Shown piece by piece: positions 32,901 through 64,000 of a stretch of 64,000 nucleotides of DNA. How positions within the stretch are numbered: position 1 is the first letter of the stretch; every line of letters starts with the position of its first letter. This DNA is from Psammoneis japonica (Eukaryota), in contig QPGO01000065.1 in the NCBI GenBank assembly GCA_008632985.1, positions 248,001 to 312,000 on the forward strand, in the 5' to 3' direction. The translations under genes were made by a program, and so were the position numbers. The notes beneath the pieces are model-generated. The model made no database searches. It was given only the letters and a program-made list of their open reading frames with translations, and was not told where the DNA came from.

Positions 32901-33189
32901 ATGGAGGACAAGCATCCGCGGGCATGTGGGCCACATGCCCACATGCGATGCTGACCACAAAATTGACCACTCAAACATCAGCACAGATCAAAGCCATGAG
33001 GGCTTGCACATGTCTGCAAAGCACCTGCTGGCGGCCTGTTCCAGCTCCAGGTGCTCTGCTTTTCATCACGCGAGAGGCCGATTTTCTGCGCAGTTCAGCA
33101 CAATTAACTCCTTCAATTTTGATCGTTTCGAAAATCGAAAGGTGAGTGTACACCCAAAAACACATGCAAAGTGTACACTTGCCCTTCGA
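29996..33189 (+). repeat. 912-bp near-identical direct duplication (29996-30907 and 32278-33189) flanking an assembly gap
   Basis: The copies differ at only ~8 nt by eye. May be a tandem duplication or two haplotypes scaffolded in series. Confidence 0.9.
31897..32277. other. Assembly gap (381 N)
   Basis: Run of N. Confidence 1.
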
Positions 33190-33292
33190 TTTGGCAAAAA
33201 ATGGATTTGGAAAAAGTCAATTGCGCCAAATGCACAAATTTCCAAATGATGGGAATCGAACCCGTGCGGAGCACCTGGAGCTGGAACAGGCC
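33033..33292. mobile_element. MITE-like non-autonomous DNA transposon, 27-bp TIRs, 4-bp TSD TGGC
   Basis: ggcctgttccagctccaggtgctc(t/c)gc at 33033 and its reverse complement ending at 33292. tggc on both sides (33029-33032, 33293-33296). Removing it restores the reading frame (..KHLLA|TFTGEDVTRE..). Confidence 0.8.
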
Positions 33293-34817: not shown

Positions 34818-34935
34818 CTCCACCCAGGGAGCAGTGATGCTCACAACATCATCAATGTCATTGTCACTCCACTCTCTGGAAGCCACAATGAGACAGCCCC
34901 TCGCAAGTTCCAGCTGCTCCCAAAAGATTTTACAG
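34818..34935 (+). pseudogene. Hypermutated copy of the HDAC fragment at 50212-50325
   Basis: HPGSSDAHNIINVIVTPL versus YPGSSDAHNIINVPITPL. Nucleotide alignment continues through cccctcgcaagttcc(a/g)gctgctcccaaaa. Confidence 0.8.
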
Positions 34936-37792
34936 TTGGTGGGCTGAGCGCATCCTGCAGCAGCTTTAAGTTGGCCATGACAGCAGGCACAAGAAAGGTC
35001 CACGTGTCGACATTCATGTCATTGTGAAGATCAAGATGAAGACTGCAGGCATGACACATTTGAGATCATGTTTGCGCGTCAAAGACGATGACAATGGAAA
35101 TGCACCCAAGAAAGGTCTTGTCCATTCAATGCATGAGCAACAAGATGCCCCTTGCCTTCTTGGTTTGGATTGGTCACGTCTGCTCCCCGTTTTGGGCAAA
35201 TGCAAAGGCACAAAGGAAAATGACGCTGACTTTTCTGGGTGCTCTGCATCGAGTTTGAGCATGGCACTGCCAGGGTCGTTTGTCTTCGTGCAGCTGATGG
35301 GCACCGACAGTGCACGTGTGTCGATGCTTCTTGTCTGGCAGTGCCACTGGAGTGGGCGGGAATTCATTTGAGCTGGCGGAAATCACGTCAAAGCACCGCC
35401 GCGAGATTCTGTTGATGCCAAGGCCAAAACTGTGTGCTCGGAAGGCAAGCATCTCAGTCTTTTTGAAGCACATGATGGTCTTTGACGCACACCAAGAATT
35501 CCGCGATTTGCAAGATGGGCAATGTCTGCACCATGCTTTTGCTCATTTTCTCTTGTTCCTGCAATGATGGCGAGACATGCTGCAAAACACAGCGGAGAAA
35601 TCCGCGATTGCAAAAGAGACAGCTTGAGGAGTGCACCCAACAAGTCTTGAATTCACTCTTTGACAGCAAGCGGGATGGGATCACTGTGGGTGTTGTCTGC
35701 CAAGCCTTGAGTCCAACTGGCTTCCATCAAGGACATGGATGGATTCGCACGCACGTGTCGGTCAGAGCAGCTCCTCGAGGCTGGCTTGTGGATGAGGGTG
35801 AACGCCGTCCGAGCGCAGGCCTTGCATCCCACCAGAAATGAGAAAATGCTGCACCGATTCAATGCTCGGCCCTTCCTTGATGTTGGCGGCGCTTCGGGTG
35901 AGAAGGACCGCCCCTGTCACTGCGCTCTTCTTCCTCGGAAGAATCGTCGGGGCCCTGCGTGAATCGGGGTCATGCGTGTTGGACCACATCAATCATGCAG
36001 CAAATTCCAGCTGCCTTGCAGCTTTGGTTTTACTTGAGGAGTGATGCAGTCATTTTTTTTGTTGGCCATGTCTGTCATTTGCAACATTCCCCGCAAAGAC
36101 GTCCAGCAAAACGCCGCTTCAGAAGCGAGAATTCGCAGAGACACCAAAAGTCAAAACAATGACACGACGTCATTGCAGCAATGAAACTCGTCGACAAAAG
36201 GGACACCACGTGGGAACCATAGATCCAATGAAATGTTGGGCGTCGACAGTTGAAAGAAAGTGATCCTCGGACCGATGATCATGCAAATCTCGCCGCTGTC
36301 CATCCAAGAATGCAGGAATTACGACCACACGTTCTGCCCCACTCTGTGATGCAGAGCCCGCAATGCTTGCCAAAAATCATGCAAGTCAGATGATCCAATC
36401 ACCATTTGGAATGTTTGCACGTGAGCACCGTGGCAGATGAGAGGAAGCAGCATGATCAAAAAAGGCTGTTGTCATCTTTTGGATGAGCAAATCACGGGTG
36501 GAGCCATCACAACCGATGACACTGGCAGAACTTTGCTCAGTTTCTTTCACGTCTCCAGCCAGTGATGGCTGCTCGTGTGCTCGTGCACAGCACACATCCA
36601 ATGAAGCGCAAGTTGTCTCAGTCAGACGAGAAATGATGTGCATCCGCGATGCTCCTCGACTGTGTTTTTTCCCATGTGCTGTCACACCAGATGAGCCAAC
36701 GCAAGTGTTGATTGAAGAGGTGATGCTCTGGTGCTCACCCCATCCAATTCAAAATGTTCTGGATGCTCAAACACAACATGCGTTTTGCCACGTGCCGGTG
36801 GACCAGCTGTGCATGGGCTTGTGGCAGTGTCCTGTGTTAATTGCGTTCTCTAGAATCCAAACTCGGGTGGACCGCCCATCGCATGTCCCAGGAGCATCTC
36901 AGAAAATGCCGGCATGTTGCTCTGGACTCTGTGACGTCCTGCATTTCTGGCGATCAACAAGATCTTGGTTTCCACTTAAATCGTGCATTTTGCACCAACT
37001 GTTCTTGAAGGCTGCATCTCAGCCCGTCTTGTTTCCTCAGCAGCTCATTCTTGTTGTGATCTGTCAGCAACATGACTTGTCACTCAGCATCGCTTCTCAT
37101 GTTCACTCCATGCATGACACCGACATTTGTGTCGGTTGAAGAACTCACACATCTCTCAGCCTTGCACGACAAAAGGCCAACACATGCCGAGAGTGTTGCA
37201 CATTCAAACCATTTTTTTTTCGCCAATCGAATCGAATCAAGACAATGTCACGACTCATTTGTGAAAACTGGTGAGTTGTCGTCCAGTCAACCATCAACTC
37301 GCTTGCAGCGAAAGACACCCGATGCCCCGACATCGCACATCGTGCAAATGCAGCAATCTAGACAGAAACGTGTTGCAGGAGTGCCAGACATTGTCACGAG
37401 CAGAAGATCTCTGACAACAAAGTCGAGAGGCTCCTTTCCAATTCAGAGTGCTGTGATTGTGCGTCGCTTCCAACATCATCATGGGAATCATGGGGATTGT
37501 GCTGTCCGCGGTCGCCAAAAATGTCACAGGTGTCCTCAATTCCGGGTGACCAGGGAGTCCTGCATGGAGTCCTGCACAATTTTTGTTCCACATGTCTTTC
37601 ACAACACACCGCAAAGACCAACCATGAGCACCGGCTGCACTGTCACCATCACCCGCCATGCGGCAAATGCCAAGCGACGTGCAAGCGAACCACCAAAAGA
37701 GGCTGGTCGCAGGCCCACCACAAGCACTTGACGTCGCAATGGTGAGCTCAGCATGTCTGGTTGGGGGGAAAGATAAAGAACAATCATCCTTC

Positions 37793-38158
37793 TGCACTGT
37801 GCTCAAAGAACGAGTGCAAATAAAAGCAGAACGAAGTTCGAAAAGTGAAAATTATGAGATTGAATTTTGCTCTGTGATTTTTGGTTTCTCCGAACAAGTT
37901 CTCAATGGCCCAAAGCTTCTGTGCTGCTTCTGCAGACAAAAGGCCTTTCGGAGAACATGTTCGTGACAACAGATTGTCCGGATGCGATTGCCATTGACAC
38001 GCAAGATGTCAACATCGTCAATCGATGCACCTGCAATTCTCGACATCCGATCAACTCTGTGTGATCGTTCTGTCCTTTGTGCGCATCCACGACTGTGGTG
38101 CGATTGACACACAGACAACATGCAATCACAAACATGCATGCAACAGTCGCGTGCTGCA
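37793..38158 (-). repeat. 3' LTR (hypermutated copy)
   Basis: 366 bp, aligns to 44778-45141 with nearly all TA changed to TG/CA. Confidence 0.9.
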
Positions 38159-40279
38159 CTCCCTCCCCATTGCACATTGCCGGCAGAGTCATTTGTTGAG
38201 TGGATTGTTCGATGGACATTGACAGTGTCAACAATGTCTCCACGTTCACTGCATTGTGCCACCGGCAATGGACTGTTGTTGTTTTACACAGGCCAGCACA
38301 CACAGGGCCGTTTCATTTTCCAAATGTCTTTCGAGAGTGTCATGGTTTGTCTCACGCTTTATGTGCACATGTGATGAACATGAATGTGCTGTGGTGTTGC
38401 GTCGAGCATTCTCTCTGACATTGTTTTGTTCATTTGGACACACGGACCAATTGTCCTGCTGTTCTTTCGACGCGTTCCAGGTCTGGGTGGGACCTCGCAC
38501 CACTGAACTGTGACATCGACAGTTTTTTGAATCACGTCGTATGTCACGCACGTAGATTTCTACATGATTTTTTCGACATTTTGTGTCATTTTACGGTGCA
38601 CTCATTGAGCGATCCGTCCAACAACTTCTGACATTTTTTGTTGCAGTGCGATTCCATGATGTCACAAGAATCGCGCAGGGCAGGCGCATTTGCAAAAACG
38701 TCGAGTGGCAAGAGGCATGATTGTGCCACAAACTTGGCCGTTTATTTGATGTTGAAGACAAACACATCCATTGATTAAATTCTCGCACTGCGGAGCTCGC
38801 ACGTGGAATTCTACGGGCCCAATGTCACACGGAGTCCCACCTGGGGCTGGAACGCGTCTTTCATGGCATCGATTGCACATGGCATTTTGCCCAGTGCTCG
38901 ATGTGCACACTTGGTTGGCATTCACTTGCTTGCTTGTGGATTTCATGCAGTTTGGCGGGCTCACTTTGTGTGCCATGTTGCTCTGCTGCACTGCCACGTT
39001 TCTTGAGTGCTTGGCAATTTAACGATGGTCAAGGACACGACCATTTCGTCTTGACAATCAATCCTGTGATGGTTGTGAATTCCATTGTGGATTTTTGCAC
39101 TTCAACCATCTGTCAGTTGGGTTGCAATCGTCATTTGGACGTTTCTTTTTGACACGCCGGTGTTGTTTTGTCATTCCGAAGGCACTGGTTTCGTGCACCA
39201 AGTGGATGAATGTCCTTTTTTCTTTTCTTTTTCTCAATCTTTGGCACATCCGATCCCGTGTGTCGACATGACAAGTTGTTTGTGTCTTGCCTCGTACATT
39301 GTACAGTACAACCATGCGGGTGTTGTGAGATTGTCTTTTGCCAGTGTGAAGTGGATGCTGTAATGTCGCACACCAATCTGTCACTGTTTTTTCCTAAATC
39401 GTCCTTTAAAAAGGCGATTTTATCCTTATTATGATGTGAGCATTTTTCGATCTCGCTCGCCTCCACGAAAAGTGTTCGTATGATATGTCGCGTCCGACAA
39501 TTTGGAGGGAAAGTCTTTATCCCGTTTTAACGGTAGGACATTGTCGTAGGATTCAATTTTTTTCATAGTAAGTCGGCTGATCGCGTCTATCGCGACGATG
39601 TTCGCCTTGCCCTCGATGTATTTTAATTCGGGACTGAAGTTTTCTATTGTAAGTCGTCAACGTATGACTTTGTCCGTTGTGTCTTATGATCCGTATATAT
39701 ATAAATGTGTTGGCCGAACAGTATATTTCGGAATTTTATAAGTGTTTTCACTATGGACAGAAGTTCTTTTTTCCGTTGTAACGTATAATATTGAAATACG
39801 TGTATGATAGCAATATAGTTTTTGATTTGATACGCTCCTTATTTTCTGTGTTAGACCGACTCAGAGGGACAGTACACCCAATTCCTGAGGGACACGACAC
39901 GCATACAAGTGCCATACACAGACACATAATCAATCGCACACAACACGCACAATTTCCAAGGGACACGAAACCCTCACAAAGTTTTACCAAGTCAATTTGC
40001 ACGCAGCAAACTGCGGCGCAGCACAATGATGCGAGCCGCCGGTGTCCCACTTTACGGCGTGATATCTCTATGATACTTTCACCGATTTTCCCGTTGCTTA
40101 TTTCATTCTTAACATAAATTGTACAATACATCCAATGACTTTGATTCCATTGTGTGTCATTGTGAATTATGGATTTCTGTTTTGTTTGAAACCATGCAGC
40201 AATTTCAAATTTGGAGAAGCGCGCACTAGGGAAAGCGTGTACGAAGGATGCAGGTTGTGCAGCATTTCGATTCCCAATG

Positions 40280-40520
40280 GTCGATCCGAAACTATTGGCA
40301 GTGTCACACCATCGTATGTCGTGTGACATGTGATAGAGCATGTGATGTAGTAGTTAAAATTAAGACTCCTGCAATGAATGCCAGTGGTGCAAACAGCAAG
40401 CTAATCTGCCGTCGATCCGAAACTGCCAGTGGTGTCGCATGATAGAGCATGTTAGGTTGTTAAATTTGAGACTCTTACAATGAACACTAGTGATGCAAAT
40501 AGCATGCTAATCTGCTGTCA
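40280..40520. repeat. Two-copy degenerate tandem repeat (~110-130 bp)
   Basis: gtcgatccgaaact..tgatagagcatgt..gttaaa..agactc..caatgaa..tgcaaa.agca.gctaatctgc occurs twice. Confidence 0.7.
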
Positions 40521-42100
40521 ATGTGACTGGAGTTTTTAAGCCGCCGCCCTCTTGCCCTCTTTCTCAATCTTGTTCATCGTCGTTTGCAGTTTTTTCCAAT
40601 GCCGAAACAACAGCTCCCACTTTGTTTTCCAATTTGGATTTTCCATCAACAACCTTCCTCTCCTCACTTGTGCTAGCTTTGAAGCTGCGAGTTGATGCTG
40701 CCTTCTTTTCATCAACCAGCTTGTTGCACAAGGGCACGGCTTTGTTGTGCTGCTCAACCAAATTAAAAAACACTTGAGAGACACGGATTTCAACATCTTG
40801 CAAGCCCTGTCCCACCAAGCCATGTAGTTGTCATCATCCTTTGCTTGAGGACGATTGCTGCCATTGAGATGCTCCTTCTCCTCACTTGCAAACAGCGCAC
40901 GCGGGCCCTTGCTTTTAGAGATTTGTTGAGTTCATCATGCTCGGATTTTTTGTAAAGTGCTCCATGCCCCAACTTCTTCTTGAGCACCATGTGCACACCA
41001 GAATCATGTTGTGCCTGCGACTCAGGCTTCCAATGAGTCCCCTTGCGAGCACCTTCGCGTTCAATCTTGCACTCCATTGAGAAAGCACAGAATTGCCTCA
41101 TCAATTTGCTGCAGTTCGGCACAGTGAGAGTCTCTCCACGCAGATGCTTTCGTTCCAACTGATGGACTGGTGGATGTCCTGTTTTTTTGGCAAAAACGTT
41201 AAATGCTGCGACCGCCGTCTTGTAGCCATCTTCGGTTTGGTCTGCTTTGTCTTGCATTTCTGCGCATGCTTGGAGCATCATGGATTCGTCTTCGCGCTCT
41301 TCTGCCTCATCCTCATTTGAATCTTCCAAATGGGAGGCCTCAAGCTCAGCAGCAAGTCGATTGACGTGGTCCACCTCACTCGCTTTTGCCTCGTTGCTCG
41401 GCTCGTCGCTGGACTTGTCCTTCTTGCATGGATTGTTGTGATGCGAGTAGAAGATTGTGCCTGCTGCAGTGGTTGCTGGTGGTTCCAACCCGTCCTGGGC
41501 CTGCGCAGTTGGAGCATCTTTTTCATTGATGAGAGATGGCATTGTGGACAAATGATGCCGACAGCGCACGCCACACAAGTCCAATCGCAACGAATCGCAA
41601 CAATGGCAATGAAAACGGTAGATTCTAGGCAGTGCAACAGCAGCAACGAGCGAGCGGCGGCAGACTGCTGCACTGCATGGCAGTGCGGTGGTCGGACCAT
41701 CTGTCGTCCGTCGCAGGGTGACCCGTCTGGTCGCCGGCTCCACCCGTCGATTTCCGGCCGATTTGCGAGGGACCCGAGGGACACCCTGTCCCTCGGGGGC
41801 GCGCTTCGCGCGTCCCTCCCGCTCCGCGGGACAAATGTCCCTCCAGGGACGCTCCGCGTCCCTCCAAAAAAAATTTTCAGAGACTTTTCGTCCCGCACTT
41901 GTGCTTTTGCCGTTTGACCTTTGTTGAGGTGAATCTGGCCAGCATTGCACAGGAGATCGTTGAGACTGCATGTCTCGACAGCAGCGGCGTGTGACGACGA
42001 GATGTTGCAGTGTTCTTTGCGTTTTTCTCATGTTGCGATTGCTTGAATCGCCTCCATTTTCTTTGCAATCGATTGCATGTCCTTGCGCATGGAAGTCTTG
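40520..42100 (-). mobile_element. Nested insertion in the gypsy pol region carrying a decayed ORF (possibly Crypton/tyrosine-recombinase N-terminal type)
   Basis: Non-gypsy sequence between RT segments. ORF from ~41543 (MPSLINEK..TEDGYKTAVAAFNVFAKK..) is loosely like YR core-binding regions. GC-rich hairpin cluster upstream. Family assignment is only a guess. Confidence 0.35.
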
Positions 42101-44760
42101 ACAATTAATTTCAAGTTGAGTGGTGAAGGGCTTTTGTTGTCAACCTTCAAAGTGGCTGCTCCAGTCGCACGAATGCCGCATCAAGTGTTGCTTGCACAGG
42201 CGACATTTTGAAGTCACTTTTTGTCAGGTGCAGACGATCATGCGTGGTTGTTCTGACAACTTCAAACCTGTCATGAGTTTGCTCATGTGTTGTTCAAAAA
42301 TGTCTGGGGCTCTGTGGATCCTCATTGGAAGTCTGCAGTGCTCATTTTCTCCCTGCGGCATGATTTTCGTGTGAGCACGACGTGTGCTTTTTTCATTTGA
42401 CATGGTGGCATTCCACACTTGAATCAAATGGATCACATGTGTGAAACGTTCTTGCTTCAACGGCATTTCCTGAATGTTGGGTGAAGGACACACCACGTGT
42501 GCGAACCTTTTGCTGAGCTTCTGAGTGTCGGACGCGGTCGAACTTGACCTGTTTTCTTCAGACAATGAGTCTCAGAGCGACTCGTTCAGAGCAATTTTAT
42601 TTTTGAGACTTCAATCTTTCACAATGGGTCAACTCCTTTTGATTGGACGCCTCCAAAGACTGTGATGGGAGAAGGTTCTCACGCGTCATGGAGTCGCGTC
42701 AGATTTTCCACGATGAGATCCACTGATGCTTCCCATGCATTCGTCTGAGGAACTTTTCAAAAAGATTTCAACCTCTCAAGAAGAAGATTGAGTTGGTTGT
42801 GTTCATTTGGGTTAGATGCATCGCCGTGGTTGTCACTTGATTGGGGTCGATGGCGCGACAATGTGAGTCGAGGACCATTGGTTCCGTCACTGACTCCATT
42901 CACGGCGTCACATTTTTCAATGTGATCGGTTTTCAGCTTGAAAACATCGGCATCGAAGAGTGTGTGAACATTCTTCACAGGGCAATTGCTTCTTCCCATT
43001 TGACTTCTTCATTTCCGCAGTCTGATGTGATCACAAGACTGGACATCAAGTCGCGTCCCATGATCATGTCACTCGACCTTGAAGAAGATTTTGTGTCATC
43101 GACACATCCTGTTTGAACATCAACAAGTCTTAAAAATTTGCACAGTGAGAACTGAGCTCGGTTTCTGCTGTCAGCCGTGAAGAGCTCACCCTTGGTTTCC
43201 CAAGTTTTTTGGTGGCGAAATGTTTTGGTTCTCAACTTTCGCACGATTTTGCGTAAAATCATGGGCTGATGATGTTCTTCATCGAGAGAACACGCAGAAG
43301 CTTGTTTTTTGCTTTTCTCAGAGAAGCAGTCATGCAGACAGCGAGAACAGGACTCGTGTGACATGCTGTGATGTTTTTTCTGGGTTTCCAGATGTCCTGT
43401 GACGCGGTGTGCTCCTCGATCGGTGCAAATTTTTGATCGGACTCGATCGGTTCAATTTTTCTAAATTGACAGTTTTGTTCGTCAAGCGTTTTAGAGTCTC
43501 AATTTTTGCTCTTGTTTTCTCGTTCCTTTGCCAAGGAACTTGCTTTGACAGTTTTTGTGAACTGCCCAGTTCACAGTTCAGCTCAGCTCCTCTTTCACAG
43601 AGGCATTTCTGCTCTCGTCACGTTCCCGCGCGATTGCCATTTAGAGCATCATGTTTTTTTTGGGTCTCTTTCAGAGCCACCCTTGCACTCTTTTGCTCTT
43701 TTTCTTGTTCAAGGAACTTGCTTTGAGTGTTTTTTGAACTGCCTGATCAATCATGACGTCCAACTCTTTTTGTTGTCGCGACAACACGTGCGATTGCCAT
43801 TTGAACTGCACCGTTTTGGATCACATTCACAGTGTCCAAGGCGTTCTTTTGCTGGCTCATTTTCAGAGCAGCATTGATCCGTGATGCAGGCATTCTTTTT
43901 TCAAAGATTGGACCTTTTGCTCACTTTGGATTGTTCTGGTGCCATGTGGGAGACCATTTTTGGAACCAAATTTGGAACCTTTTTGATTTTGGAATCAACA
44001 GCGCTGTCAGAGCCTGATTTGACATGTTTTTTTGTCATGGACGTCCTCGCCGACCTCCAGACGACTCAAACCTCAATCAGCTCGTCAAGGGTGTGATCCA
44101 ACAATCCAACATTTTGGACAGCAGGCTGATGCTGCCATCCTTGCGGTGCGAGTGACAGCCAACAGCTCACGGCTCGGTTTCCCGCTAGATTCAACTTAGA
44201 ATCGATTGAAGGGTCGCATGGACGCTCTTCATTGACCTCTTGGGTCGAATGGGCACTCTCTTGCTGCTGAGAGCCTTTGGTTTCTTCAGATCATCTCGAA
44301 AAAAACAGCTCTGATTCTGAAGTGCAGTTCCTCGGAGGACATGAGTTGTGAGACACTTGAGGTGCTTTTGAATGGTTCCCTCTTGCTCTTTGGACTCGAG
44401 ACTCGTCGATTCGGTCTCAATGACTCTTCAATGGTCTCTCCTTGCAAAGTAGATGCATTTCTCGGATCTGATCGACTCGGGACTTGCACTCTCTGCAACC
44501 ATGACTTGGTGTAGATTTTTTGACAATGCGGTGCACTTGTAGAGTCCTTGATCCTTGGATGCTTGGAATGGACCGCATTGGAACGAATCTTGTCATTTGC
44601 TAGACGAAAAACAGCGTTCCATCTTGAGGTGCTGCTCGGATTGAGCTTCTTCCACTCGGAAATCGATTCCAGCAGAACTGGCGCGATTCGTCCCTGTTTG
44701 TGGAAGAATTTACAAAGGCACATTAGTTAAAATTTTCATTTTCCGTGCTTTTTACCTTCT
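40520..44760. other. TpA-depleted domain C (CpG largely retained)
   Basis: Sparse TA and abundant CG. Confidence 0.85.
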
Positions 44761-44777
44761 GTGGTGTGTATACACAA

Positions 44778-45141
44778 TGCACTATGCTCGAAGAACGAGT
44801 GTAAACGAAAGTAGAACGAAGTTCGAAAAGTGAAAATTATGAGATTGAATTTTGCTCTGTGATTTTTGGTTTCTCCGAACGAGTTCTCAATGGCCTAAAG
44901 CTTCTGTACTGCTTCTACAGACAAAAGGCCTTTCGAAGAATATATTCGTGACAACAGATTGTCCGGATACGATTGCTGTTGACACGTAAGATGTCAACAT
45001 CGTCAATCGATCGTATTTGCAATTCTCGACATCCGATCAACTCTGTGTGATCGTTCTGTCCTTTGTACGCATCCACGACTGTGGTACGATTGACATATAA
45101 ATAATATATAATCATTATATATATATAAGTCGCATACTGCA
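44778..45141 (-). repeat. 5' LTR (largely unmutated copy, TA-rich tract intact)
   Basis: 364 bp. Retains a tatataa-type tract at 45094-45128. Confidence 0.9.
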
Positions 45142-45999
45142 CTTCGACGACGGATCGAAAAGGTCGTGCAAACATTGATGTCGGTTCACTGTACGATACA
45201 GTAGTAGAAGTATGTACTGGTTTTGTACGGAACGGTCGGAGACATTTCTACATAAAGGAGGGAAGACATTTCTACACTTAAAGGAGGGAAGAAGGGTCAT
45301 TGCTCTTTGTTACGTTTGCTGTCAGTTGACACTTTCCTCATGGATTCTCATGGATCCTCTTCATACAAATCTACGAGCGGAACTGAGTAGGGCGGAGCAA
45401 GGTCATAATTACAAAAAGTCATTTTCATATACTGCGTTTGCTTCGTATAAAGTACGAGAGAAAGTCATTCAATTGACAAAACGGTCATTTTCTCAGTCAT
45501 CCACATGAATCCACATGGTATAAATCTACGTACGAGAAATCAACGGTCAATGCAAAGAGTCATTCTCTAAACTCCGATTCCTTCGTACAATGTACGTGAA
45601 AAGTCATTGAAAATTTCAAAATTTCCATGAGGATGACTGAGGATTCGTGAGGATCCGTGAGGATCCGTGAGAAAAAAAACACACGACACAAACCCGACCC
45701 CCCAGGTCGAGCTTAGCATCCAACGCCGTCGCGATCGCTGCTTTCTGTGGTTGTACTAGTACGTAGGTGTCGTGTGACTGAACCGTCACTTCAGCTGGGA
45801 TCGAAGACATGTCGAGACCGCGACGCTGTCCTAGCCGACGGACAGTGGTCCTTGCTACGACAAGAACAAGAAACCCTGCCAAATCATCGATCTCTTTGGA
45901 TTGTTGAATGCTCTTTCTCTACCGGAACGCTATATCATCACGACATGCCATCGTCTTGTGGTATCGGTGACGGATGATATGGAGAGGTACCAGATAGTG

Positions 46000-47275: not shown

Positions 47276-47303
47276 GAGGGCCCAGTAGCAACAACATCGC
47301 GAC

Positions 47304-49780: not shown

Positions 49781-49789
49781 CAGTGGTGA

Positions 49790-50670: not shown

Positions 50671-50674
50671 GTCC

Positions 50675-51775: not shown

Positions 51776-51779
51776 GTCA

Positions 51780-52850: not shown

Positions 52851-55800
52851 CAATTCATTTGCCAAAATCCATCATCCGAATTGATCAAGCTTCCAATCAT
52901 ACGGTACATAATGAAAGCTCTAGCGTAGAATAAACGTTACATCCACTCAATTCCGTTAGGTTCAAGGTTTCTTGTACGTAATGAAAATCGATTCAAGCAA
53001 GGCGAGGCCGCTTGGTTTCGACACTGCCACTGCCATCGACAGGACTGAAGAAGTGCTTGGCAGTGTGTTGATGCTTCAACCTGCAAATTCTGCAGCAACA
53101 CGCAATGTTGCAGTTGGTGCATCTGCCTCTGCAGAGAGCTTCCCATGCATGGAGGGGCATCGGGGGCCTTCAGGAACCAGCTCACCAACATCCAATCCCC
53201 TGACAACCTTCCCCCCACAGCCATCAGCAACTCATCAATGGCAGGGACCCAGCCAGCAAACCCCCCATGCTGACTCCAGCACCATTGTCAACACCCACAC
53301 ACCTGCCAAAGGCCAGCCCCACACTTCATCTCCAACTCCTCCATCTTCATGCCCTGTTTTAGCTTCAGCACCATCATCTCCAACACAAGGTCCAGCCCTT
53401 CTGATGCCAGCTTGTCCTCCATCTGGAAAATGTTGTTGCTCTTGTTCAGAGTTGTTCTGCATTTGACAAGGGCAAACCTTGTGTTCTCATGTTCTCAACA
53501 AGTGCTCATCAACTGTGTTCAAAAAGCCTTTTCAACAACTGAGCCAATCAGCAAAGTGGGAAACAACAATGCTCACTTGTCTTGCTGTGCATTTGATCTT
53601 GACAAGATCAACTTTGCAAACATTGACAACAACTCTTTTTACAACCCACATTGTTCCAACAATTGAGCCAGTTGGCAGCAAAGCAGGAAATGACAATGAA
53701 TTAAATTTTTGACTTGCAGAGTTTTGCACTTGACAACAGCACATTTGAAGCAACACGCTGTTGTGACTCATGTCTGTCAATGCCCACATTAATTCACCCC
53801 ATTAATTTGCTGTTGCCCTCCTGGCTGTGTGTTGCTTGCAATTTGATTTGTGCACTCTGTGATTTAGACTTTCTGCACTCAATTGTGTTGCAGTCTGTTT
53901 CTTGCTCTCTTTTCTCAAGCCCTTTGCTGTCTGCACATGATGCCACCCTGTTGCAGTTGCACTTGCATGGCACTGCAGTGCTCTGCAGTTCTGGTGTCCA
54001 CAAGGATCTTCTGTTGTTTCACACTGTGACCTCACACACTCTTGCTTTTGTTGAAAAGTGTGCTGGGTCAGCCAAAGCTTTGCTCACAAAAAAAGAAGAG
54101 GGTGCAACAAAAATTGTGAGTTCTGCATGTGTTTCATTTTGAATCATCTTTGCTTTGGTGCAGCTTCTGTTTGCCTTTCTGCATCCCCTGCAGCACTGTC
54201 TTCCCATCTTGCTCAGCTTTCATGTCAACATGCCTGAGCTCCAAGATTGGCAAAAGTGTCAGTTGTTTGCATTGTTCTCATGCGCGCATGCTTTCATGCC
54301 TCGCACATCATTTCTCTTGCCTCAACTTGCCTCCCAACTTTGTTTGGTTGTGCCCAGCCCTTTGCTCTGCTGTTGTTGCCTTCTTGCAATGCTGTCATTG
54401 TCAGGATGTTGGGCGGGCTCTCTTGTGTTTGCATTTTGTGTCTTGTGAGGCAGCGATGATTTGCTGTTGCACCCACACCAAGCCAGTCAGCCAAGGTGAT
54501 CAGCATCTGTGTCATTGTTGCACTGGCCATTTTTTTACTCCATGTTTGCCTGCACTGTTGCAGATTTCAATGATTTGAGCTGACTCAAATGAGTGACATT
54601 GGTTTTCTGCAGTTTGAATGCTGTTTTTTACAAACTGTTGCACAGGTGACACCTGGATGCAAAACACCACTCAAATCAGATTGGTTTTGCTGTTGTGTCT
54701 GCAGAAGGTCAATGTCTCAGTTTTTGCCACACTGGTGTGGTGTCTTTGCAGGACAGCAGAGCAGATGCCCGATGCAGTCAGTGCACTTTGTTTTCATGCA
54801 GCACAAGGCAGCAGAGCAAGACAAAGACTTGCACTTGCAGCCACTCTCCTCCTTTGCATGTCTCCTGGCCCAAGAAAAAAATGCTTGCACAAATCATGGG
54901 AAAGACAGTGCTTTTTCATTGTGACCACCAGCTCTTCCTCCACTGGACAAAGCTTCTTGGTGGTTGCAAAAGCCCAGCTTCTTCCATTTCCTCCAAATCC
55001 AGTGCATCAAAGTGGCACATGCCATCATCATTGTCAAAGAAACCTGCATCATTGTCGCTCCTTGTCAATGTGGGAAGAGGACAAGTGAGAACAGTGAAGA
55101 GCAAGAGAGCATGTCAAACTTCTTGCTAAAAAAAAGCACATCATCATGGAGTGGTGCACCAACGTTGAACAGGCTCCAAGTTGTGCTCAGTCTCCCGCAA
55201 GTGCTAAAAATCACTGTGGCCATTGCAAAGTCACTCACCACCTTGTTCATTGGCAGAGACATTGCCATCATTCACCCATTGAGATTCTCGGACACTGGCA
55301 GGAGGGAAAAAAGGGGGGGTGGCAAAAACACAATGGATCACCGTCAAGAAGGACAGGGGCCTGAATCCATCAGCACCCAAGCCAAGGGAGTGGTTGACAG
55401 ATCTGACTGACCCAAAGAGCACAGTGCAGCAGCATTGCTTGAGAGGGGCCAATGGGAGAGGGAGGTGAAAGAGCACTGGGAACATGTGCTGGGTGTCCCT
55501 TTTCACTTGATGTTTTGCTTGTTGCTCCTGAGCCTCAGGGCAGTGTGATGGAGCAACAGCTGTCAAGAAGAAGGCTGGCAAAGAAAACTGCTGCAGCATG
55601 TCTTGGGCATTCTCTTCATTGTCAGCGCATGCATTTTTATTTGCTTTGTTTTCTTTGATTGTTTTGCTTGATTCAACAGAGAACAAGGTCCGAACCTGAG
55701 CGCGACTGTGTCCAAGGAAATCCAAGTCATCGTGCCCACCCTTTTCACTGTGCACGGCAAAGTGGAGCTCCTTGTTTGTGCATTTGCAACTCAAGCAGCA

Positions 55801-58800
55801 ATCTGGGACTGTGCACATTTCCTCAGAATGGGACCCTTGATGACAGAGTCAAACAATGGAATGGGACGTGAACAAAGAGAGGCGTGGAATTTGCAAACAC
55901 ACGTTTGAACCTCTGAAGGTGAAAAGACCAGGCTGCAATGCCACCTTCATGCCTTCAACATGAACTTGTTGCACACAAGTCCATGCAACCAACAGAGAGC
56001 ACAATCCTGCAAGCTCCAACACTTCTTTTGTGTCATCTTCGACCATGCATCAACCAGTGCTTGTTCCTTGTCAGAGATCAAGTGATTGAATCTGTTTGTC
56101 ACCTCTTCCTCAAGCCCAGCCTTCTGGACTGCCAACATGGAAGACTTGACAGCCACAGAGTCACCCAAAGACTTGCAAGTTGACAAAAGCAGCAGCTTCA
56201 ACGAGCATCTTGCAGAGAAAGTCCAGCAATGGGGATGCTTTGATGCCAGTTGCTCCCCAAAGGACAGGGCAGGTCAGCTGAAAATCCCGGAGATGCTTTG
56301 CACCTCTGTGATTTCTGCCACAATGTCGTCAACTCCAACGTTGCTCCATGGACACAAATGGATGCAGCATGCGCGTGGGACCCTTCCTGCAAACACTCAA
56401 GGACGGCTTTCACAAGAGGGCTCTTGTGCAGTTTGTTTCCGTCATTGTTGGTTGAAAGCTTTTCTTTACAGCCTTGGAAAATGAGCACAAGGATGATGCG
56501 TGACACTGAGATGCCATCTGCTCTAGCTTGTCTTCAAGAGAATCTGAGTGGTTGATTTCATCTTGGTCTCTGTCCTTGTGTTGAGGCTGCTTGGCCAGAG
56601 AAGCGACAACCTGAGTGACTCTTGACTTGAGTGGCCTTGATGCACCACTTGTGGCATGCACCAAAATCTCTGCAGCGGGCATTGGCTTGTGTCTGCATCC
56701 TTGTTGCTGCTGCTTGGTGCAGCAACTTCATCTTCATCATGTGGAGGCTTGTGTTCAACAAGACCGCGGGCTGCCGTGCATCCGCTTTGACATTGCAGGA
56801 GCAAAAAACATGAGCCAACATGTCCCCAATGCAACTGACGGGATCGTGCACTTTGTCTTCAAAGGGGGGCATTCCATTGCAGGCAGAAGTCAATGCCAAG
56901 AGGAATCATCTTGTCTCTTCTGATCTTCTGGATGCAGCAGCAATCATCTTGATCAAGTGAGAGCAGAAAGTGGGCACGTCCATTTTCAAACAATGAAGAA
57001 ATTGCTTGACAAGGTCCAGGCACAACGCTTTGTCCAAAGCATCAGCATCCACAGGTTGTTGCAGCTGCTGCAACAGCTCTTGCAAATTCAGATGAATTTG
57101 CAACCACTGACAGAGCCGCTCACATGCTTGTTGTTCCTGTTTTGAGGTCAACAATTCCAACAGCAGAAGCAGCACCGAGACTTTGCTTGATTGAATCTGT
57201 GCCTCCCTGCATTTCCACATCTGTTCCACATGTTTTGCTCAACTCATGCCGAATGGTGCGGACATGATCCAAAGCCTTGAGAAACTGCGTGCCTCTCATG
57301 TCAAGGTCATCAAAGGCGTGCTGATCCAGCAAGAGTGACTCGTTCTGTGACAAATCAAATTTGTCAAGGAGCTCATCCACTGCTTGAGCCCCCGCTCTTG
57401 TGCTTGATTTCATTCTTCAAATGCTCTTGCCAGTTCAGCTGCTTGTTCTTCTTCACATCCCACTTCTGGCAACGACTCCTCAGATTTGCTTCTGATGAGG
57501 TGGCTCCAGAAGTGCTGTTGTGAACACTTGCACTCACTTCACGCGCACAATCGATGCTGTTGTCATGACACTTCGCCTCAAGTCCTGGACTCTCTTGACG
57601 GGATTCTGAAGTTCCTCTTGCATTGAAAGAGCTTGTTCCAGAGTGTCCTCTTCAATCGCAACTCGCACTGACCATGAACCATGAATCAACCATGGGCAAA
57701 TGGCAAATGCACCAGTGCTTCTCACGCTGCCTTCATTGCTGTTGCATCTGTGCAAACCTCCAATGCACGAGACATCTTGTTGGCAAGGATGTCGGCACCC
57801 ACAGATGCGGTGGTGTTCTCATCATGGTCGGCCATGGTTCAAGTGAGTTGCTCTCTTGGCTCTGCTCATGTGGCAGAGATGCTGTCATGAGTTGGAAAGT
57901 TGAAATGGGCAAATGGCAAATGGTTCATGTGATTTCATGCGGTTGGCTTGGATGCATGCTGACAAGATCATTGCACGGCCAATGTGCAGACAGCATGAGG
58001 ACTGAGCAGTGATTCCCCTTTGCAGCATCTGGTGCACTTTCTGCCATTTGTTTCCCCAGCAGAAGTGCGCGAGTTTGCCGCAGTGTTTTCAGGCACAAAC
58101 GATGTGTGGGTGCACACCACAGGAATGACAAATGTACAAAATTTTAAAATCAGAATTTCTCCCTCCAACCTCCTTCACAAGAGGCCAAAGGGACAAAAAA
58201 AAGATTGAGAAAAGACACAGCACAATGCGTGGTGTCTCGTCAGCTGGCGTCAGTCTTCCCAAGTCGGGTGGAGATGCAGTTGCTCTGTGGTCAAATCGTC
58301 CCAATTGTCTGCACTGTTTCAACACACATGTTTGCAAAATCTGATGATCAAACTGAGAGCACAAAATCTTGGACACAAAGGCAGATTCTTGCCTGGCAGG
58401 GTGAGAAGAAAACGTTGCTTGTGGCTGTTCTGGGTGAGGGTGGCACGAGGGTGGCTGAATGTTCTTTTGATCTGTTGTTGAATGTTGCCACAAGCGCTGT
58501 TCATGAAGTGGTGCCTTTGTGTGCAAAAATGGCAAAGACAAAACAGAGAGAACACCAGAGCAGACACCATCACAGACAGTGGGAGGGAAAACGATGATGC
58601 TTTTTGAGTTGATGACAGGCCATGGAGTTGTTCGGTCCACCAGATCTAGATTGGGACAAACGAGTCGATGGGTTCAAATTTCATCAGAACAGCCTCCCAC
58701 AGTTTGTGTGATGAAAGATTGTGATGGGAAAAAAGCACCAAATGCCAAACACTACCTGAATTTGGTGAGTCAACTTGCACTGGAGCTGCGCTTGTTTGTG

Positions 58801-61582
58801 GTTGCACACTGCACCCCAGCACAAGAGCTCAATCTTTCTCAGCCTCTTGCTTGACCACTGCCATGTGTGCTGGAAAGAAATGCTCCTCCTCTGGCATTTT
58901 CAAGCCTTTCATGCATCAGCTGCAAAACACACAACACCCAAACAATGTGCTCATCAACATTGCAACAATTTGCACTTGACTTGAGCTCTCATCAAAGATC
59001 AATTTGAACTTAACTTGAGCTCTCATCAAAGATCAAAGGCACCTTCTTCTCTTGAGTTCTTTCTTTGAGTTTGCAATCAAAAGAGCTGCTGTGAAAAGAT
59101 CTTCCACTCCAGCCAACAAAACCCACACATGCTGGGCTCACACCATCCCAAAACACTAGAAAAAACACACCAACCCACAATTGTCCTCCAAAGCCACTGC
59201 TGCAGAAACAGGAAAAAGGCACTTTGTTGCTGTGCCAGCCCCAGTGTCCGAGACTGAATCTTCATCATCACAGTGAAGCACAACGTGAGCAGATGTTTGG
59301 TGGATTTTCTGCCAGTGCACAATCCACATTGTCCACAGGGAAGATAAATTTGTGCTTGTTTCTGAGGCTTTTGCATGTCATTGAAATTTGTTGTTCTCCA
59401 AATGATTGTGCAGATGAGCTCAAAAAAGCACAGAACACCCCAAAACAACTCTGGAAGCTGGGTGAATAAAATTGCTGTTTGGCGGTGCAAACAGGGTTGC
59501 CCCAAAGTGCTTCTCAAAACACCTTCAGATTGAATGTGGCAAAATGTCTGCTGTTGACAAAACAGAGTCACTGTGGCAAGACAGACCACGGTTGGCACCA
59601 CAACACACAACAACACCATGGCAAGCAATGCCAACGCCGTTCAATCATCTGCCAGCAGGCATTTCCAGATGAGATCAAAGCTGTTGGACAACATTTGTGT
59701 GCTGCATTGACCCACACCATGTTTTTTGATTTGGCTGCAAGTTGGCTGCTTCTGCTTGATCACCAGCCACCGAACAGCTTTTCCTGCAGGGTGTGGCCAG
59801 TTGCTCATAAAATTGAACCCAAATTGCCGGACCAACTGCCCCCAACCCTTGAAAGTGTGAGACTGTGTGGCTCTGGGTCTGCACTGCAGAAAAGATGAAG
59901 CCACTGCACTGTGAGAACAGAAGACAACTTTGTTGTGAGGGCACAGGTGTGCACAAAGGCACCTTGTTGAGTGCTGTCTTTTTCTGCCATTTGCAGCCAC
60001 AGAGCACAGTCAACCTGCAGCTCAGGGCACCATCCAGTTGCTTCTCTGCTTCTTTTTTCCTGCCATTCTCAACCACAGAGAAAAGCAACTTGCAGCTCAG
60101 GGCACAGCATCCACATGCAGTTGCTTCTCTTCTTTCCTTTTCTTTTTCTGCAATCTGCAGCCACAGAGAACAGGCAACTCACAGCTCACGGCACAATCCA
60201 GGTTGCTTCTCTGCACCTGTCAAAAAGCACTGTCAAGAGCTTTTGAGATGTGACACAGCTGGCACAACAAGAGACTGTGAGAGCAGCAAGCAGTTCTCTC
60301 CACAAAATGCTGCAGATGGTGGCAGCAGCAGTTGTCTGCATGCAAAGTGTTGCCAAAATCACCCGAACATGTTGCAAAGAAAAGAGGAACACACTGCAAT
60401 GGCAGTGCATTTTTCAGGCCTTCTTGAGCTGATGCACTGAAGGAGTCTGTGACAGAGCTGCTCAGACAGCATGCACAATGGCACTCATCTGTGTCTTTCT
60501 TGTTGATCAAACATGCAAAAAATGTGCCCATCATTTTGAGCTGACTTGGAAAAATCAAAAGTTGAAGTTGCATTTTTTGAAATGCTTTGCAGGCTGTCAT
60601 GTGCATGCTGCGGTGACCCCACCAGTGTGGATGGCACTCTTTTTGTGTCAAAAAGCAAGAGCAGCAGCAGAGGATGAGGCATGAAGCACCTTCTTTGATT
60701 GTTGGGTGCTTCACCACTTGACAATGAAGCAGGCATTTCTGGCTCTTTTGGGGTGCTGCAAAGATGTGCAAGGCTGCTTCACAGGCCCTCCTCCCTTGAT
60801 GCCAAGGAAGACACAGCCACCAAGCCCAAAGCCACTGATGATCTGGGTTTGGAGCAATGGAAGATGTCAGAAAGACACCAGCAGTCTCCCAATGTCACAG
60901 TCTTTGTCCTCTCAAGTTTTTTTGGGGCCAGGCAAGCATTGCAAAGTGGATGGTCTCAAGCTTCTGTGCTTTAACCATGCAAGGGGGGGCTGGCAGTGGC
61001 TGCTGCACACACTGCAAGAAACAAATCTTCTTGTGCCGCTCTTTGAGAAGAATGAAAAACCTCAATTCTGGAGGGCCAAACAAATGCTGGAAGCCACCAT
61101 CAATCAAAGCCAAGAAGCCATTTGAGCTGGAGCTCATTTTCATTCCAAGAAAGCTGGTCATGATTTGATTGATGCAAAGGAATGTGGAATGAGACCACAG
61201 CAGGGCCCTCCCAATGGGATGTTTGCATCCATTGCTCTCAACCTCTCACATTCTTGTGATTGACTCACACAGCAGAACCCTGCACAGTCACTCACACTGA
61301 GAATGAACCACACATTTAGCACGCCAAACATCTGCTGGTGCAATGGCTTGTCATGGCTTTGAAAGCATCTCAAAATTCTTGTCATCTTGCACTTGCACCA
61401 CTCAACAACATGATGCCACTTGACTTGGTTTTGTTGATGCAACATCACATGGTGGCAATCCAGCAATTGCCTTCTGCAAGGTCCACCCGCAGAGAGCAAG
61501 GAGCAGTCTAGCAAAGATCAGAAGACCTGGCATGATCTTCAAACAAATGGCAAGCCTCTGTCTTCAATGCACTTAAAAGTGC

Positions 61583-61661
61583 TTCTGCCATGTTGGCCAC
61601 AGTTTGGCAAACATTGCTGTCACCTTCTGCCATGTTGGCCACAGTTTGGCAAACATTGCTG
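61583..61661. repeat. Short tandem duplication (38-bp core, 42-bp period)
   Basis: cttctgccatgttggccacagtttggcaaacattgctg occurs twice. Confidence 0.9.
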
Positions 61662-62159
61662 CTGTCACATTGGTGCTTTTCTGATGTCTCCTTGTTGTCT
61701 GTCTCACTGAATTCCATGAAAAACACAGGAACTGCATCAGGGACTGCCAGTTGGAGCCAAGTGCATTTCTGGTGGCTGGGGGTCTCAACTCACATCATTG
61801 AAAAGCTGCAGACCAGGGCTGGGCCAGCCATTGTTGGGGAGAATGTCCTTAGAAACCAACATTCTGCTGAAGCAAAGTCAACCATTGGGAGGGCTTGAGA
61901 GCTCCAACTCCATGTCCAAGTCTGTTTTTGGCACCAGCTGTTGTTGTGTTGGCTTTTTGGATGCCTCCATCAGTGCTTCCAACACATTTCAAAGCAAGGC
62001 CAGAACATGGTCTGTGGAGCAACAGCACTGCCGTGTCTGGTCAGTTGGGCACCATGTTGATGCTTTGGGGCAGAGCTTTGTGTGCACTTGCAGCAGTGAG
62101 AAGCAACAAGCAGCTTGCAAACTTTGCACAACATTTGGAATTCAAAGGAGCACCACAAG

Positions 62160-62960
62160 TCACCAACTTTCTCTGGAGACATGGACAAGACAAGATGGAA
62201 CAATTGCTTGCTCATTTTGCATCATGCCATCTTAATGCAAAATGTGCATTTCTCCCTGGTGATCACAAATTCATGCAGTGTCTCTGGTGGCTTGAGCCAA
62301 GCACTTGTTGGGCAACTCTGTCCTTTGAAAATGGCTGTCACATTGTGCAGCTGCTGTGCATCAGCAGCAGCATGCTGAGGGAAAGGCAATCTCAACTTGA
62401 GCCGACTTTTGAGTGACTTTTCTTGTGTCAACAACATGAGGGCGGGTGAGATCAAAAGCCACTCTTTTTTTTAGAGCACAGCTGTTGCAATGTGGACCCT
62501 GATTTTTGCACAGTCACCAACTTGCAATTGCTTTGATGAGTGGGGAACAATGTCCCCCCGTGCATTTGCAAATGCTTTGACATGCTGACAAGGCTCTCAC
62601 CAGAGCACATCAAACCAAGTGGCTGCTCTCTTCATTTTGCCCCACTTTTGTTGCACCAACAATTGCTCCACAACACAAAGGGTCATCATCTTGGGGAGCA
62701 AAGTTTTCTGTTTGTCTCTGCATGAGCAAACAAGCCAACAAAATCTTCCATTTGTTTGTGTGTGGCTGTTCATTGGGAGCCTGTGAGATGCAACAAGTCA
62801 GAGAGTGTTTTTCTTCTGTCTTGCACAAAGAGAACACAAAGAGAGACACACTGTGACTCACCTTTTTTCTCTGGAAACATGGACAAGACAAGATGGAATG
62901 GTTGCTTGCATCATGTTGTTTGATGTCATGCCACAACAATGCAAAAGATGCATTTCATTC
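62160..62960 (+). repeat. ~95-bp diverged direct repeat (62160-62255 and 62860-62957)
   Basis: ttctctgga(g/a)acatggacaagacaagatggaa(caa/tgg)ttgcttgc is shared. Confidence 0.75.
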
Positions 62961-64000
62961 TCCCCAGCAGAGCAGAGCTCAATTTGAGGCCCAGTGTGAA
63001 TTAAGACCCTTGTGCTGTCAGGCTCAAATGATGGATGATTCAAGGCAAGAGCTCCACAAAAACATCACAGGAACAGTGTGCGATGAATGGTCAATGGCCA
63101 TTTCCACCTGCAGTGCAGCTGCAAAAAGGTGACTGTGCTGCCACAAATGGAGGTCCAAATGAACAACACTGCACCAATCCTCATCATGTTGATGCATGGG
63201 TGGATCCTGAGCAGCTTCATTGCTGCAGTCCATGGATCAATTGGCTTGCTCCTCATGGCTCTCCTCTGTTTCTCCAGTGCCTCTCATTGAACTCTTCTGG
63301 CTTTTGAAAATTTCAACTGGTTTCTCCTTGTTGCGCTGACCTTCATGAACAAAGATGACACAGTCAACAAACATGACAGAGCACATTCTTCTGTCTTTGG
63401 ATGCTCATTTGGCAGGGCCATGGCGCATCTTTTATGTCACGTCAATGCAGTGCAGGGATCCTGCACAGGACACAGTGCCAATTCCATGCATGTGATGTGG
63501 AGGGCCTTGAATCATGACCATGTTGTCATCCTTGCTTGTCGGACGTTTTGGTTCACATGCCAAAACTCATCAACCACCCAGATTTGAAAAAGTGGAACAA
63601 CTTTTTTTCTGACAAGTTCAATGTGATCTTTCATGCAAATGCACAAAAGTGTGAAATTCGCGCGCATCATGTTGTCTGCATGGGTGCAGTTCTTGGCCGG
63701 GCCTCAACTGCGCTCCACTCTAGAAGTTGTTGCAAATTCATGCTTTCCACTTTCTGTGCAGTCTCTGTGGTGGCTGCTGGCTAGAGAGGTGCTGTCAGTT
63801 GAAGTGAAACGTCATCATGCACGCATGCCAACCACTCAAATTTTCAAAAATTCTCCGCACAAATTGGTGCTTTCTCAAACCCCTCACCCGGCACATCCCA
63901 GAACTGCCACAAAAAAAAGGTGAGGGACCTGGATCCTTTTTTAAAAGGTGAGTTTCTTGACACCCTCCTGGATCACATGCTGAAAAAGGATCCAGGGAAA

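Follow-up and report, generated by a model that had tools for sequence, protein, structure and literature searches.

In a 64,000-nucleotide stretch of the diatom Psammoneis japonica (contig QPGO01000065.1, positions 248,001 to 312,000; hereafter the window), we found four long domains that have each lost 90-94% of their TA dinucleotides and have gained TG and CA instead. The loss follows a code written in the flanking bases, runs from TA to TG or CA, affects both strands and is separable from a loss of CpG in the same DNA, and the TA-poor sequence is recovered in contigs rebuilt from reads. The domains are very probably the end product of a regional, context-dependent A:T to G:C hypermutation that acts on both strands at TpA in selected nuclear DNA.

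Observed-to-expected ratios (o/e) for TA, TG, CA and CG were computed in 2-kb segments. TA o/e was 0.02-0.08 in the four domains (A to D, Table 1) compared to 0.55-0.79 in gene-bearing DNA, TG and CA together reached 1.5-1.95 in the depleted domains, and CG was reduced there. Most domain boundaries are sharp on a scale of about 100 bp; on the left side of domain D, positions 52900-52999 hold ten TAs and the next 300 bp hold none. As a control for specificity, we took 1706 one-kb segments from 80 unrelated metagenome loci, none of which had a TA o/e below 0.1 (lowest listed, 0.11). The 24 segments below 0.2 were GC-rich (58-71% GC), lacked an excess of TG or CA and are presumably bacterial. Metagenome loci anchored on ThiC, a gene also present in the window, were nearly all bacterial; the sole diatom-like contig among them (L002, 11 kb) is normal in TA and carries little weight.

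The few TAs that survive are not a random sample of contexts. A preliminary description of this DNA, made from the sequence alone, had proposed that TAY becomes TGY (equivalently, RTA becomes RCA; Y, pyrimidine; R, purine) and that YTAR is spared, on an estimate of about 31 surviving TAs in the last 11 kb, of which about 22 were YTAR and about seven of the other nine were TTTAY or RTAAA. We counted 34 survivors between 52990 and 64000, comprising 23 YTAR (TTAA 10, CTAG 6, TTAG 5, CTAA 2), 7 YTAY, 3 RTAR and 1 RTAY, with TTTAY or RTAAA making up nine of the 11 outside YTAR; the same bias, also claimed for domain A, is present there (YTAR, 11/15). In the normal gene-bearing background, 1260 TAs divide into 213 YTAR, 306 YTAY, 324 RTAR and 417 RTAY, and the survivors in domain D do not match these flanks (chi-square 60.1, p = 5.5e-13), nor do those of five depleted stretches (29,119 bp in total) pooled against 28,800 bp of normal DNA (chi-square 123.5, p = 1.4e-26). 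Pooled TA in depleted DNA stands at 7% of normal, with TG and CA at 1.2-1.7 times normal, and survival falls from 0.28 for YTAR through 0.071 for YTAY and 0.037 for RTAR to 0.007 for RTAY. The gradation is clearer still when 4-mers are pooled over reverse complements. Survival was lowest for ATAC/GTAT (0/208), ATAT (0/91) and ATAG/CTAT (1/109), followed by GTAC (3/118) and CTAC/GTAG (8/204), intermediate for GTAA/TTAC (13/168) and ATAA/TTAT (12/147), and highest for CTAA/TTAG (19/99), CTAG (14/59) and TTAA (27/54).

These counts were fitted by a Poisson model in which every TA consists of two independent half-sites, one per strand, each with a hazard set by the base 5' of its T or, equivalently, by the base 3' of the A, complemented. 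Cumulative hazards came to 2.63 for A, 2.18 for G, 0.96 for C and 0.38 for T, corresponding to relative rates of 6.9, 5.7, 2.5 and 1; framed on adenine, T is obligatory at -1 and the preference at +1 is T 6.9, C 5.7, G 2.5 and A 1. This context-rate fit, which the preliminary description had suggested, was better than a single rate (likelihood-ratio chi-square 131.8, 3 degrees of freedom). A second neighbour also matters. Among the strand-asymmetric survivors, 23 of 34 are TTTAY and a further 7 are TCTAY, compared to 91 TTTAY among 628 in the background (p = 2e-11); within TTAY alone, TTTAY accounts for 23/25 survivors against 91/315 in the background (p = 4e-10), and YTAR survivors are likewise enriched in outer T or A (70/120 against 109/426). 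Contexts like TTTAAA are thus the refuge of surviving TA, and since a T at the second neighbour protects, the footprint extends over about five bases, which on the target strand read not-T, N, T, A, Y. The proposed code is therefore real and statistically strong, and more detailed than first described, in having graded rates and a protective second-neighbour T.

What has been lost as TA can be followed into its products. Product 4-mers of the forms TGY and RCA are raised 1.58-1.68 times, while TGR and YCA are raised only 1.19-1.40 times. In total, about 2157 TA and CG were lost and about 1954 TG and CA gained; after allowing for CpG decay, essentially all of the YTAY loss reappears as YTGY and all of the RTAR loss as RCAR. 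Among steps containing A or T, only TA is lost, with 4-mers containing AT, AA or AC at 0.73-1.25 of normal. GC-biased gene conversion was considered and rejected, since the bias from A or T towards G or C is confined to TA.

TA is ancestral and TG/CA derived, on two independent tests. The first is a long terminal repeat (LTR)-like sequence with one copy inside domain B and another outside the depleted domains. Over 366 aligned columns the copies differ at 40 positions, and 25 of these differences are a TA in the outside copy facing TG or CA in the inside copy, so that 25 of 27 TAs have gone. In two control repeat pairs lying wholly within normal domains, the corresponding counts were low and balanced, at 3 versus 1 and 4 versus 2. 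The rule that had been read from the LTR-like pair holds on realignment: RTAR became CA at 6/6 cleanly aligned sites and YTAY became TG at 2/2 mutated sites, with the two exceptions already noted, a retained TTAT and a CTAA changed to CCAA at 37911. The outside copy has a word depth of about 38,000 in contigs rebuilt from reads (described below), against a few hundred in other bins, and so represents a high-copy family. Across 44001-45334 the summed contig word depth is about 8,000-38,000, placing the unmutated repeat and the sequence just upstream of it in one very high-copy family.

The second test uses conserved tyrosine codons in a 449-codon open reading frame (ORF) within domain C. Its protein family, which carries no name, counts 11 homologues among 1.8 billion representatives, with lengths of 100-861 aa, the longer ones bearing a C-terminal region missing from the domain-C ORF. 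No Pfam match was found in the 6 of 11 homologues scanned, no PDB relative was found for P0125, and a word-index protein search with residues 255-430 of the ORF gave no match. Seven alignment columns carry Tyr in at least four of seven homologues; there the ORF reads CAT at three, TGC at one, TAC at one, Leu at one and Asn at one. Tyrosine is scarce in depleted ORFs generally, with 0-4 per 375-449 codons compared to 14-15 per 425-510 codons in ThiC and a nucleotide-sugar transporter from the normal DNA.

Both strands have been hit. YTGY and RCAR are abundant in all five depleted stretches, and within its 366 bp the inside copy of the LTR-like repeat shows 11 TG and 13 CA outcomes. The loss of CpG is a different matter. 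A decay of the 5-methylcytosine (5mC) type, from CG to TG or CA, is present but accounts only for the CG part. TA density is 2.5-4.4 per kb in all five stretches, while CG ranges from 10.9 per kb in domain D, the most CpG-decayed of the domains, to 50.6 in domain C, normal DNA having 55-60. Domain C thus combines 4.4 TA per kb with near-normal CG, so TA loss occurs without CpG loss; in the LTR-like pair, too, 25 TAs were lost while CG fell only from 22 to 19. The context of CG survival (0.33-0.52 by class) is also unlike that of TA, in that GCG is spared and TCG shows no bias. Given uniform TA loss, variable CG and a different context, CpG decay is a separate and slower process, and its extent may serve to order the domains by age, D being oldest and C youngest. 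A dual deaminase of A and C was rejected as a candidate: CG loss shows no TCG bias, TC is not depleted, trinucleotides containing TC stand at 0.82-1.33 of normal apart from TCG, and TCG behaves like the other NCG except the spared GCG.

The depleted sequence is supported by reads. Logan contigs (run X1), which are rebuilt from reads independently of the assembly, were compared with 44001-64000 and cover 30 of 30 bins, with word depths of 103-889 for domain D and 136-445 for the normal DNA beside it. A contig of 585 nt shows no difference from the window over 55717-56300, and 81% of the sampled 31-mers of 50001-60000 are present in the contigs; no RNA data containing 50001-60000 were among the matches listed. 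Transitions dominate the differences shown by these contigs (A>G 141, C>T 149, G>A 140, T>C 172, compared to 19-41 for each type of transversion). Ten such differences are listed in domain D. At 57017, 57083 and 57111 the contig has TA (CTAG, GTAG and ATAG) where the window has CA; two adjacent differences make up a single dinucleotide, written CA in the window and TG in the contig; at three the contig has CG where the window reads TG or CA; and two are other A/G changes. Since related contigs carry either TA or the alternative product, the hits fell site by site after copies or alleles had diverged, and this is the sole hint of recency in the window.

Table 1. Depleted domains and the features that bear on the direction of change (positions in the window).
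Feature	Coordinates	Strand	Basis and remarks
Domain A, TA-depleted	1..6500		2.5 TA/kb, 17.3 CG/kb; extends beyond window start; right edge graded to ~8500
Domain B, TA-depleted	28800..39300		3.8 TA/kb, 22-36 CG/kb; holds assembly gap 31897-32277 and 912-bp duplication
Normal-TA island between B and C	39300..40500		TA density
Domain C, TA-depleted	40500..44600		4.4 TA/kb, CG near normal (50.6/kb)
Domain D, TA-depleted	52975..64000		3.1 TA/kb, 10.9 CG/kb; extends beyond window end
Hypermutated LTR-like repeat copy	37793..38161	+	Inside domain B; 2 TA, 19 CG
Unmutated copy of the same LTR-like repeat	44778..45144	+	Outside depleted domains; 27 TA, 22 CG
449-codon ORF	40793..42139	-	Inside domain C; 11 homologues, best E = 7e-26

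How might such domains arise? Each TA would offer two half-sites, one per strand, being T-A-Y if adenine is the target and R-T-A if thymine is, and the half-sites would be hit independently at rates falling with the base 5' of T in the order A > G > C > T. An additional T two bases upstream would protect, so that T-Y-T-A-R-A contexts such as TTTAAA would last longest. Erasure of TA would be fast, run to saturation and halt at mostly sharp boundaries, and a slower decay of CpG, resembling ordinary deamination of 5mC, would overlie the same domains. A footprint of about five nucleotides favours a base-flipping enzyme over spontaneous chemistry; the strict dinucleotide, the neighbour grading and the independent hits on each strand resemble a hotspot motif such as a DNA-modifying enzyme of this type would leave, and the near-total conversion argues against a requirement for special secondary structure. 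The motif may thus point to an enzyme. As to its chemistry, an adenine hit at T-A-Y and a thymine hit at R-T-A are formally identical in sequence terms, an equivalence that the preliminary description had conceded. Deamination of DNA adenine to inosine, which is read as G, is the possibility that we tentatively put first, at somewhat short of even confidence. A chemistry not yet imagined is unlikely but has to be reckoned with seriously, and enzymatic oxidation of thymine to 5-hydroxymethyluracil (5hmU) or 5-formyluracil (5fU), mispairing with G, is a shade less likely again. The assignment of an enzyme is accordingly a lead, with a rival equally valid on the sequence.

In the thymine alternative, a dioxygenase of the TET/JBP type would mark silenced DNA by converting the T of R-T-A to 5hmU or 5fU; ionised 5fU would sometimes pair with G, and T to C changes would arise as a side effect of an epigenetic mark, much as CpG decay follows from 5mC. 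Several lines of work speak for it. Dinoflagellate TET/JBP homologues are reported to make 5hmU in DNA, where it is enriched on repeats and tied to the silencing of transposable elements (PMC11572971); work on Crypthecodinium in the 1980s placed 5hmU preferentially at TA and TC (cited in PMC11071213); the principal mutation caused by 5fU is A:T to G:C (PMC7051996); and TET2 variants can oxidise T to 5hmU and 5fU (PMC11804724). The dinoflagellate system would thus share with the domains a modification aimed at repeats in a lineage of SAR (Stramenopila, Alveolata and Rhizaria), an old report of TA preference and an oxidised base that gives A:T to G:C, and the overlay of CpG decay on these domains would fit a mark whose by-product is mutation. 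It differs in that no mutational consequence has been reported there and a base-resolution map in Breviolum shows no 5hmU motif (PMC11071213), compared to the strict dinucleotide and five-nucleotide footprint seen here. Furthermore, TC contexts in the window show no loss beyond TCG, and a literature search for hydroxymethyluracil, JBP or N6-methyladenine in diatoms returned no such diatom modification among the matches listed. The rate reported for a similar process in the chlorarachniophyte Bigelowiella natans, about 6e-7 per site per generation and on in some lines only, is also more like an active mutator than a slow decay.

For deamination of adenine, the closest enzymatic parallel would be TadA and its relatives ADAT2-3. 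TadA naturally acts on the anticodon loop of tRNA-Arg, at the A in U-A-C. Were adenine the base hit in the window, an obligatory 5' T and a preferred 3' pyrimidine would resemble that U-A-C. The analogy drawn in the preliminary description is weaker than was stated: the adenine base editors (ABEs) ABE7.10, ABEmax and ABE8e are reported to be broadly compatible with adenine contexts, and BjADAT2, which deaminates DNA adenine, prefers GAA and hairpin loops (PMC10354150). Some 90-99% of TAs in the domains, in contrast, were converted whatever their local structure, and there is no bystander signal of TC to TT. No candidate enzyme lies in the window. To our knowledge, no natural eukaryotic deaminase acting on adenine in chromosomal DNA has been described, and no search for one was made.

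The nearest precedent is a preprint on B. natans (Mettrop et al., bioRxiv 10.64898/2026.01.13.699255), the only relevant item among the matches listed in literature searches for such domains in diatoms or elsewhere. There, two integrated viral regions of the mutation-accumulation lines are reported to mutate about 1000-fold faster than the remaining genome, with 210/211 and 20/20 de novo changes being A to G or T to C, all of these GC-biased changes falling on TpA; the genome holds 124 clusters depleted of TpA and enriched in CpA and TpG; and an ADAT2-like DNA adenine deaminase is proposed (bioRxiv 10.64898/2026.01.13.699255). The two systems share the conversion of TpA to TpG or CpA on both strands, in discrete regions with clustered loss of TpA and gain of CpA and TpG, as well as many targets that resist annotation. 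The clusters there are defined by a Rho of at most 0.43 for TpA and of at least 1.52 for CpA+TpG over at least three consecutive 1-kb windows; here, TA o/e is 0.02-0.08 over runs of 2-kb segments in which TG/CA o/e averages 1.54-1.95, and A:T to G:C change on TpA is documented by the repeat pair and by four Tyr codons that are now CAT or TGC. The differences are equally plain. The host here is a diatom (Stramenopila), there a member of Rhizaria; depletion here is near saturation, whereas their region from a nucleocytoplasmic large DNA virus (NCLDV) is reported at 0.45; and here there is a flanking code, a second-neighbour effect and an overlay of CpG decay, while the words 'context', 'trinucleotide', 'flanking', 'CpG' and 'diatom' are absent from the main text of the preprint (bioRxiv 10.64898/2026.01.13.699255). 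Finally, no viral or transposon hallmark was found in the targets here, whereas in B. natans the targets are reported to be integrated viral DNA, with mutations seen live. Because the preprint describes hypermutation specific to TpA, the phenomenon is not categorically new; what is new here is a second lineage, saturation, a defined flanking code and the separation from CpG decay. The shared signature leads us to read the process as a mutator linked to genome defence or silencing and common to at least two SAR lineages, presumably by homology.

Repeat-induced point mutation (RIP), known from Neurospora and other fungi, is alike in being a hypermutation by transitions that is regional and saturating, prefers a certain dinucleotide and ruins the coding capacity of selected DNA. 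It differs in direction, since RIP changes C to T at CpA and so creates TpA, whereas here TpA is destroyed and CpA and TpG are created, and in its trigger, duplication, to which a 94% identical repeat pair in a normal domain has not responded.

Editing before integration is very unlikely. It would have the RNA or cDNA of a retroelement or virus edited by an ADAR/ADAT- or APOBEC-like enzyme, so that the domains arrived already hypermutated, and it has in its favour that most boundaries are sharp and that the edge near 44600 lies close to the start of the high-copy repeat. Editing of such intermediates would be strand-specific, however, and the one-strand bias expected of ADAR or APOBEC is not seen, with both product classes in every domain; TG and CA outcomes within one 366-bp copy exclude one-strand editing of an RNA or cDNA intermediate. 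In addition, no reverse transcriptase, integrase or capsid domain was found in 158 ORFs, related contigs keep TA or the alternative product at single sites, and the mutations in B. natans are reported to have arisen in situ in integrated DNA.

An artefact of sequencing, base calling or polishing, in which methylated CpG and modified TA are miscalled as TG or CA in long reads, is scarcely credible. Modified bases can cause transition-type errors in nanopore consensus, transitions are what both affected dinucleotides undergo, and there is no record of the library type. Against this, the rebuilt contigs reproduce domain D at depths similar to those of normal DNA and, at best, without a difference over 585 nt; because the word depth is high, the reads are likely to be accurate short ones, as depths of 103-889 would not be expected from error-prone reads. 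Change of Tyr to His or Cys at conserved columns, together with the short-read mutation-accumulation data from B. natans, shows that the signature is biologically real. The chance that nothing has mutated, the domains being foreign or selected DNA low in TA and CG, or that polarity is reversed through RIP-like C to T change at CpA, is negligible: under-representation of TA and CG is common in many genomes and viruses, and RIP does yield TA-rich copies, but conserved genes of ordinary TA o/e are present in the normal domains, none of the 1706 control segments approaches the depleted values, the bias is confined to TA, the TA-bearing repeat copy stands for a high-copy family, and Tyr is the residue in homologues from other organisms at positions that are His or Cys in the depleted ORF.

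Several observations weigh against hypermutation of selected DNA, or limit how far it can be taken. Direct evidence of polarity comes from one repeat pair and one ORF only, for domain D itself there is no unmutated progenitor to compare with, and the bookkeeping, survival and hazard figures all assume that the depleted domains started with the composition of the normal ones. The half-site model leaves a residual deviance of 27.5 on 12 degrees of freedom, at least partly explained by the second-neighbour effect. All read support comes from a single sample in a single study, which is probably the source of the assembly too; the library type is unrecorded, and no contig bridging the boundary at 52975 was among those listed. 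No deaminase was found among the window ORFs scanned. Transposon and viral Pfam domains were absent from all 158 ORFs of at least 90 codons (121 + 37) taken from the depleted domains and their flanks, and defence against foreign DNA is for this reason inferred only. Lastly, a 524-bp pair of 94% identity in a normal domain (13391-13914 and 20150-20679) still has 16 and 14 TAs, its differences being balanced; duplication by itself is therefore not the trigger, provided that the duplication is old enough to have been exposed.

With regard to what the mutator aims at, one mutated segment copies a high-copy repeat and one ORF belongs to the family of 11 homologues lacking a Pfam match, and silenced, repeat or foreign DNA may be the target. 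Repeats as such are insufficient, since a second LTR-like pair, at 13140-13914 and 18729-20679 (94% over 524 bp and 82% over 257 bp), brackets about 6.7 kb of TA-normal DNA and is not hypermutated. Pfam gave only weak matches on the 158 ORFs, namely collinear COG6_C and Exo70_N in domain D and, on the margin of domain A, a methyltransferase. The former lie at 56413-57416 (-), where three short ORFs in different frames match Exo70_N (E = 2e-4) and then COG6_C at profile positions 77-107 and 146-173; this may be the remnant of a vesicle-tethering gene, frameshifted and hypermutated. At the right edge of domain A, TA density rises slowly between 6500 and 8500, over an ORF resembling an S-adenosylmethionine (SAM)-dependent methyltransferase (7172-7825 +, Methyltransf_25, E = 2.5e-8), and the gradient may reflect leakage of the mutator into a flanking gene. 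Domain B contains a 912-bp direct duplication of 99.1% identity (29996-30907 and 32278-33189, the first 300 bp identical) around its gap of 381 N; its eight differences include two at TA and four at CG sites, and it is either a 2282-bp tandem duplication or an artefact of gap closing.

The window is diatom nuclear DNA. Its 425-codon ORF at 9296-10570 (-) is ThiC (Pfam E = 6e-160), sharing 92-93% identity with ThiC from several diatoms but matching no named sequence exactly, and the TA-normal parts also carry a SAICAR synthetase, the nucleotide-sugar transporter and a Myb protein. A thiamine pyrophosphate (TPP) riboswitch (RF00059, 59.7 bits, above the gathering score) lies at 8998-9104 (-), in the 3' untranslated region of ThiC, about 190 bp downstream of its ORF; TPP riboswitches adjoining THIC have been described before in algae. 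At 22982-23304, where the SAICAR-synthetase ORF region has its upstream end, a unit of 73-75 bp is present in four tandem copies, which are 72-89% identical over 100-nt frames. Counted from stop to stop, 160 of the 251 ORFs of at least 90 codons in the window overlap depleted regions and their flanks. Long open frames fill the depleted domains because TAA and TAG have been erased, leaving only TGA, and gene finders will therefore over-call there, with spurious long ORFs, in domains that cannot encode Tyr.

To conclude, targeted hypermutation as genome defence is known for C to T change, through RIP in fungi and APOBEC in animals, and its A:T to G:C counterpart has so far appeared only in a single 2026 preprint on one rhizarian alga. 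The saturated signature in a diatom extends the process to a second major lineage, one that is ecologically important and includes genetically tractable species. The flanking code constitutes a testable biochemical fingerprint, as a candidate enzyme must reproduce the order A > G > C > T together with protection of TTTAAA, and the YTAR share of surviving TAs offers a simple statistic with which genomes can be scanned for the process elsewhere. It is possible, if rather doubtful, that diatoms and chlorarachniophytes share an ancient enzymatic system of genome defence that rewrites marked DNA at TpA, and that the code of about five nucleotides is the fingerprint of a natural eukaryotic adenine deaminase of chromosomal DNA. 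Were this true, it would be the A:T to G:C counterpart of RIP and APOBEC, and a ready template for base editors.

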